A stretch of DNA of 64,000 nucleotides, taken from NCBI RefSeq assembly GCF_044324875.1, contig NZ_CP172185.1, one strand, 5' to 3'. The notes under the pieces were generated by a model, which searched no databases, was not told the origin of the DNA, and saw nothing but the letters and a program-made list of their open reading frames with translations. Origin of the DNA: Escherichia coli. GTDB lineage: Bacteria; Pseudomonadota; Gammaproteobacteria; Enterobacterales; Enterobacteriaceae. This document shows, piece by piece, positions 8,966 to 9,102 of this stretch. Within the stretch, counting starts at the first letter, position 1, and each line of letters starts with the position of its first letter. A program made the translations under genes and the position numbers.

Positions 8966-9102
8966 GATGCCAATCAATGATCGGAAGCATGCCAAATCGT
9001 GATCGATTGTGATGCCAAACTGTGATCGGAGATGGATGCCAAATCATGATCGATTCGAATGCCAAACTGCGATCGATTCAGATGCCATTTTGCACTCGCT
9101 GG
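8966..9102. repeat. IS21-type multi-copy terminal repeats, upstream (istA-proximal) end: six imperfect direct copies
   Basis: Copies starting near 8967, 8988, 9011, 9034, 9058, 9081, each containing ATGCCAA followed by TGATCG. Confidence 0.75.

Follow-up and report, generated by a model that had tools for sequence, protein, structure and literature searches.

Does an insertion sequence (IS) that bears many more repeats at one end than at the other have a damaged end, or is it simply built that way? The question arises in a 64,000-nucleotide stretch of the Escherichia coli contig NZ_CP172185.1 (hereafter, the window), where an ISSso4-type element of the IS21 family, encoding IstA and IstB, lies within the autotransporter gene ycgH. 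A reading of the letters alone (the original prediction) had counted six repeats at the istA end and about two at the istB end, and had proposed that this asymmetry and a degenerate outermost copy may affect activity or point to a truncated end. We found that the window carries an intact, mobile ISSso4-type IS21-family element that inactivates ycgH, and we consider it very likely (probability about 0.88) that the repeats form the two terminal regions (L-TIR and R-TIR), each with several sites, that this transposition-competent element normally has. The reading is built on the element boundaries, the anatomy of the repeat units, the same ends in independent insertions, a register and 23-bp period shared with relatives, and the variation of copy number in relics, all of which we observed directly.

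An intact ISSso4-type element interrupts ycgH

The element runs from 6456 (TGCG...) to 9094 (...TGCA) and is bordered on both sides by the 6-bp direct repeat CTCGCT. Its tips, TGCGTATTCC... and ...CCATTTTGCA, are TG...CA termini with imperfect terminal inverted repeats, as is expected of the IS21 family. The element, its genes, and its insertion site are laid out as follows.

6456..9094, minus strand: complete ISSso4-type IS21-family insertion sequence with TG...CA termini, 2,639 bp (empty-site match; identical full-length copies elsewhere)
6450..6455, unstranded: target-site duplication CTCGCT, istB-side copy (flank comparison and empty-site reconstruction)
9095..9100, unstranded: target-site duplication CTCGCT, istA-side copy (bases earlier included in the outermost repeat)
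7327..8892, minus strand: istA, DDE transposase (long form; the start in RefSeq corresponds to the second in-frame ATG, 8862, giving 511 aa)
6555..7310, minus strand: istB, AAA+ helper ATPase (NF038214 and PF01695)

We rebuilt the empty site by joining the flanks with a single CTCGCT, and the resulting 600-bp query was a 100% match to uninterrupted ycgH in the best-matching E. coli genomes; 588 records matched the rebuilt site at ≥99%. Together with the CTCGCT duplication, this match means that the insertion amounts to a complete IS of 2,639 bp with the accompanying target duplication. The exact junction between ycgH and the IS was found in none of the 5,426 complete E. coli genomes searched.

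IstA scored 284.6 bits against NF033546 (cut-off 160) and matched the Pfam domains rve and Mu-transpos_C_2, while IstB scored 257.8 bits against NF038214 (cut-off 200) and matched PF01695 at 1e-60. Since both proteins lie above the curated NCBIfam IS21 cut-offs, we assigned the element to the IS21 family, as had been proposed from the letters. IstA is also homologous to the IstA of IS5376 (PDB 8B4H/8Q4D); the homology covers the DDE and beta-barrel core, residues 85-383, with E 7e-14. At the nucleotide level, the element is 96.3% identical (98 differences) to a copy on Shigella sonnei 53G plasmid A (NC_016833) that PGAP/RefSeq labels "ISSso4 family," and the two IstA proteins are 97.7% identical in amino acids. 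By ISfinder convention, an isoform has >95% nucleotide identity.

The IS splits ycgH into two parts (window 4259-6455 and 9101-9566). The upstream passenger part of the gene also looks broken, with an open reading frame (ORF) at 4259-5863 that stops and a new frame that begins at 5860. A further ORF, at 9009-9566, runs from the left end of the IS out into the beta-barrel part of ycgH.

Six bipartite units at the left end and three at the right end

The repeats at the IS ends are far beyond chance. With up to three mismatches, the earlier consensus GATGCCAAAYNRTGATCGATT had five matches in the window against 0.02 expected, four on the plus strand at 8988-9078 and one on the minus strand at 6471-6491. 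A strict two-block pattern, TGGCAT-N5-9-CGATC, had six matches against a chance expectation of 0.24 (five at the istA end, one at the istB end, and none elsewhere in the window), and Tandem Repeats Finder reported 23-bp and 47-bp periods across 8965-9087. Furthermore, a pattern in the opposite register, CGATCR-N3-WTTKGCAT, gave seven clean matches at the IS ends, and a repeat search of the window paired the two ends as inverted repeats. The spacing of 22-24 bp given in the original prediction was borne out.

We anchored the unit register at the IS termini and counted inwards, a register common to the relatives described below. Each unit is then bipartite, with an A half TTTGGCATC and, 3-6 bp on, a B half ATCGATCA or TCCGATCA; the first conserved block starts 6-7 bp from the tip. 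The GATC cores are 22-24 bp apart, at positions 21, 44, 68, 91, and 113 from the left tip and 20, 44, and 66 from the right tip. Counted in this way, there are six ~23-bp units at the istA end (L1-L6) and three at the istB end (R1-R3).

9070..9094, minus strand: L1, istA-end terminal unit, TGCAAAATGGCATCTGAATCGATCG; both halves complete
9047..9069, minus strand: L2, CAGTTTGGCATTCGAATCGATCA
9023..9046, minus strand: L3, TGATTTGGCATCCATCTCCGATCA
9000..9022, minus strand: L4, CAGTTTGGCATCACAATCGATCA
8978..8999, minus strand: L5, CGATTTGGCATGCTTCCGATCA
8956..8977, minus strand: L6, innermost left unit, TTGATTGGCATCCTGCCAGTCA; degenerate B half without GATC
6456..6479, plus strand: R1, istB-end terminal unit, TGCGTATTCCGCTCTATTCGATCA; degenerate A half, intact B half
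6480..6503, plus strand: R2, CGGATTGGCATCGAAGTCCGATCA
6504..6525, plus strand: R3, GCGATTCGCATCCATTCGATCA
8932..8953, minus strand: sub-terminal inner block immediately inside the left array, CCGGGAATTAACTCTTTTCACC; inverted-repeat pairing
6527..6549, plus strand: sub-terminal inner block immediately inside the right array, beside the istB stop codon, CCGGGAACTTAACTTTTTCTACC; inverted-repeat pairing

The number six at the istA end thus stands, but the register in which it had been counted does not: the last of the earlier copies (9081-9100) is not a unit. It is made up of the 14-bp IS tip gatgccattttgca, at the end of which (9094) the IS stops, and of the 6-bp host duplication ctcgct, so that the supposed degenerate outermost copy is a junction of element and host. 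At the istB end, about two copies become three. As had been supposed, the IS21 family is described as having several terminal repeats to which IstA binds (PMC10122671, PMC11208146).

The two inner blocks share the consensus CCGGGAAyTTAACTyTTTyyACC. Because the same block lies inside both arrays, the left end resembles the right end plus three more units. The block itself is possibly a further protein site.

Independent insertions have the same ends

A megablast search showed that many E. coli chromosomes and plasmids harbour the whole element at 99.7-100% identity; 297 records cover at least 80% of it, with up to 12 places per record. We retrieved and compared nine further copies, that of S. 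sonnei among them. In the eight sampled copies with 0-4 differences at other sites, the first 70 bp and the last 140 bp are identical to the window. Identical ends in other genomic copies were what the original prediction itself had named as making the asymmetry simply the normal structure, and this is what these eight copies have.

Target duplications flank eight of the nine retrieved copies (4, 5, 5, 6, 6, 7, 7, and 7 bp), including seven of the eight with 0-4 differences, where they are 4-7 bp long. The IS21-family range is 4-8 bp. That identical copies abound at different sites, flanked by target duplications, indirectly suggests that IstA may bind the terminal repeats and transpose together with IstB. 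The remaining copy has no duplication, probably owing to recombination between IS copies. It is the full-length, identical copy on pD2-tet(X4) of strain ESDR8, which lies between traG and an HNH endonuclease gene, a setting that suggests a rearrangement by such recombination.

Strain ESDR8 also has a stand-alone 2,636-bp linear record (NZ_JBXSPU010000008.1, "plasmid unnamed8") that equals the IS minus its first three bases, in a genome with at least 15 other IS copies. This record is most likely an assembly artefact of the repeat; a free excised IS is a conceivable, less likely source.

The terminal register is shared with distant relatives

We collected related IS21-family elements by tblastn of plasmids (IstA identity 46-48%). 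Their direct units, counted from the termini, are listed below with those of the S. sonnei copy.

ISPsy40: four left, four right; no extra features seen
ISEc12: four left, two right; at least one inverted copy at the left end
ISAs29: four left, two right; inverted copies at the left end
Klebsiella IS21-family element: three left, two right; inverted copies at the left end
ISSso4, S. sonnei copy: six left, three right; layout as in the window

In all four distant relatives the register counted from the termini recurs, the first block lying at position 5-6 and the period being 23 bp, and three of the four have a surplus of units at the istA end, ISPsy40 being symmetric. Unequal site numbers are thus the normal build of ISSso4 and of most relatives examined. 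Six direct units lie at the high end of this small sample, in which ISSso4 has the longest purely direct array.

The two tips of ISSso4 differ in type. Its right tip, TGCGTATTCCGC (window 6456-6469), matches the ISAs29 tips at both ends (TGCATATTCCGG left, TGCGTATTCCGG right), whereas its left tip, TGCAAAATGGCATC, instead bears the element's own A half-site. The tips of ISEc12 and of the Klebsiella element resemble the ISSso4 right tip less closely.

Origin and variation of the left array

Within the left array, L2 is 87% identical to L4 and L3 is 86% identical to L5; aligned as pairs, L2L3 and L4L5 agree at 40 of 47 positions. This likeness and the 47-bp period of Tandem Repeats Finder point to the duplication of a two-unit block. 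The number of units also varies among decayed copies. In E. coli O157:H7 EDL933, a solo left-end relic carries five units (L2 is missing); strain PF9285 has a relic of four units, and a pseudogenised copy in strain M24FEP (91% identical) has two, with the A half of L1 fused to the B half of L5. Unit loss of this kind is what recombination between 23-bp repeats would produce. Among the copies sampled, which are part of all copies, no intact copy had a different unit number. The TTGGCAT and CGATC cores of L1-L5 and R1-R3 do not differ between the element in the window and two other intact variants, those of strain WAT (97.8%) and S. sonnei (96.3%).

The EDL933 relic (NZ_CP008957, about 1091566-1091674, ending GATGCCATTTTGCA) lies beside terW and directly adjoins one end of an IS66-family element (tnpA-tnpB-tnpC), which IS682 in turn interrupts. 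The same ~102-bp array fragment occurs in many other E. coli genomes, many O157:H7 strains among them. We also observed that the first helix-turn-helix (HTH) region of IstA, at about residues 16-80 (window 8653-8847, minus strand), gives a sub-threshold match to NF038385, the IS66-like accessory protein TnpA. Such matches, of 33-63 bits (cut-off 150), were found in all five clade members tested, the IstA of the window included, and a Pfam search of the IstA N-terminus gave only a non-significant HTH_23 match. The NF038385 match probably reflects a common HTH fold, and it hints at a DNA-binding domain common to IS21 IstA and one type of IS66 TnpA.

Alternative explanations of the array

In the register of the original prediction, the last copy, gatgccattttgcactcgct, departs from the consensus after eight bases, which would suit a left end that has been truncated or damaged, with a degenerate remnant outermost, in an impaired or immobile element. 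However, the divergent part is accounted for by the IS tip TTTTGCA and the 6-bp target duplication, and L1 is complete with both halves once units are counted from the terminus. The same 140-bp left end, moreover, recurs in the eight copies at different loci, seven of them with target duplications, and as many as 12 copies in one record are contrary to an immobile element. The left end is complete, and we reject a truncated or impaired end as extremely improbable; the repeat asymmetry should not be read as damage in annotation. A module shared with an IS66-family element, that is, an IS21/IS66 chimera, was suggested by the 4+1 array, of about 94% identity, that adjoins IS66-family tnpA on its upstream side in EDL933 and by the weak NF038385 match of the IstA N-terminus. 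We rejected it as hardly credible, because alignments of related, ISEc49-like IS66 elements stop exactly at the inner edge of the array, which places the array outside the IS66 element, and because the EDL933 TnpA has no similarity to IstA. A solo ISSso4-like left end beside a later IS66 insertion is the simplest reading of the EDL933 arrangement.

Two further accounts take the end as intact and differ from ours in what the inner left units are for. The units beyond L1-L2 could be selectively neutral, amplified in tandem through slippage or unequal recombination: the 47-bp duplication looks recent, relics have five, four, or two units, L6 is variable as well as degenerate, and IS5376 requires no more than two repeats per end in vitro (PMC10122671). 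Against neutrality, the six-unit array is retained in variants that are 96-98% identical, and the few substitutions near L1-L5 spare the TTGGCAT and CGATC cores; three of the four distant relatives independently retain three to four or more left units, plus inverted copies; and the variants seen with fewer units are all decayed relics, none of them active. We consider neutral amplification a possible but, on balance, unlikely explanation. The array might otherwise be a regulatory device, in which IstA bound to the inner left units represses its own synthesis or is titrated, and in which binding that responds to GATC methylation couples transposition to replication, as in IS10 and IS50. Eight of the nine units, five left and three right (window 8978-9094 and 6456-6525), have GATC, the Dam site, in their B half, as has each unit of ISEc12, another enterobacterial relative, and the array sits between the IS tip and istA. 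GATC may, however, merely belong to the recognition sequence. It is absent from the units of ISPsy40 and of the Klebsiella element and is present in ISAs29 only in L1, although the genera of ISAs29 and of the Klebsiella element are Dam-positive. Nor did any promoter-like site overlap the array: a promoter scan and a separate consensus scan with 0-7-bp spacers found no sigma-70-like promoter in the left end or in the modelled IRR-IRL junction, both weak negatives. A junction promoter formed by abutted ends is reported for IS21 tandems. We therefore hold the regulatory account to be doubtful. More doubtful still is its narrower form, in which L3-L6 would be a methylation-sensitive array that loads or sequesters IstA through the Dam GATC in nearly every B half. 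If it were true, the left end would be the regulated end, transposition would be tied to the passage of the replication fork, and activity would be tuned by gain or loss of 23- or 47-bp units. To our knowledge, Dam control has not been described for the IS21 family.

Several of these observations weigh against the reading of the repeats as normal, functional multi-site ends. L6 is degenerate and has lost its A half in the S. sonnei copy, and for that reason seems weakly constrained. The 4/4 symmetry of ISPsy40 indicates that asymmetry is not obligatory in the clade, and, given that IS5376 needs only two repeats per end, L3-L6 could be neutral amplification. Finally, with no promoter found in the left end or at the junction, there is no support for autoregulation by promoter occlusion.

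Predicted roles of the units

In the IS21 family, the terminal inverted repeats consist of direct repeats 23 bp apart, and two complete repeats per end are needed for integration in vitro (PMC10122671). Within each IS5376 repeat, about one turn separates two conserved blocks, CS1 and CS2, with HTH-2 of IstA touching CS1 and HTH-1 touching CS2; a catalytic IstA pair occupies repeat 1 and a structural pair repeat 2, and the 23-bp spacing suits superhelical wrapping (PMC10122671). The terminal repeats may keep IstA autoinhibited until IstB arrives (PMC11208146). A published case, ISMyo2, has three repeats on the left and two on the right (PMC4608216).

By homology with IS5376 IstA, we predict that each ~23-bp unit of an A and a B half is the site for one IstA monomer, whose two N-terminal HTH domains would read the two halves about one helical turn apart. 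Unit 1, which begins 6-7 bp from the cleaved ...CA tip, would position the catalytic subunit, and unit 2 would hold the structural subunit, within an IstA tetramer that brings the two ends together. L1/L2 and R1/R2, on the same homology, would build the tetrameric synaptic complex. L3-L6 probably arose by tandem amplification of the two-unit 47-bp block, in an array that would grow and shrink by recombination between units. Lying between the tip and istA, they are most likely auxiliary sites at which IstA would be loaded or sequestered, and their presence would render the ends non-equivalent, as is the case in Mu and Tn7.

The repeat architecture as such is already known for the IS21 family. 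What we add is a terminus-anchored map of bipartite predicted IstA sites, six left and three right, together with evidence for growth of the array through duplication of two units and for its shrinkage in relics. IS5376 needs only two repeats per end, and this element could be a natural test case for the role of repeats past the second.

Comparison with known systems

The closest comparison is with the ISSso4 copy of S. sonnei 53G, which is 2,638 bp long against 2,639 bp here and has identical tips and six and three units at the same positions. At the ends, the two differ in the lost A half of L6 in S. sonnei and in two point changes. ISEc12, ISAs29, and the Klebsiella element (IstA 46-47% identical) share the register, the 23-bp period, and the greater number of units at the istA end, and several of them have the tip TGCGTATT, as does the right end of the element; the TGCGTATTCCG tip of R1 is common to ISAs29. 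ISAs29 further bears a similar sub-terminal block, ...CTTAACGC... (...CTTAAC...), at both ends, and the Klebsiella element has the block at its left end and a CCTAACGC variant at its right. However, the half-site sequences of these three relatives differ from those of ISSso4, and their inverted copies between the array and istA are absent from ISSso4.

IS5376 and IS21 have in common with the element an istA-istB operon, TG...CA ends, direct repeats 23 bp apart, and two blocks about one helical turn apart. In descriptions of IS5376, each end has two repeats (L1/L2 and R1/R2) and IstA is 400 aa long, whereas the element here has six and three units and an IstA of 511-521 aa. The repeat sequences of IS5376 are unrelated to those of the element, and its reported target duplications are 5 bp long (PMC10122671) as against 4-7 bp here. 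The upper figure for IstA counts from the first of two in-frame ATGs (8892 and 8862), which are 10 codons apart, each follow a Shine-Dalgarno-like GGAG or AGGAG, and are both kept in the S. sonnei copy. They recall the transposase and cointegrase isoforms of IS21, which are 8 N-terminal residues apart (PMC10122671).

Phage Mu and Tn7 similarly have several transposase sites per end, unequal in number and arrangement between left and right, and a transposase with tandem HTH domains that works with an AAA+ helper, an analogy already drawn for the IS21 family (PMC10122671). Both belong to other families and are much larger elements, and the likeness to ISSso4 is one of mechanism, not of membership.
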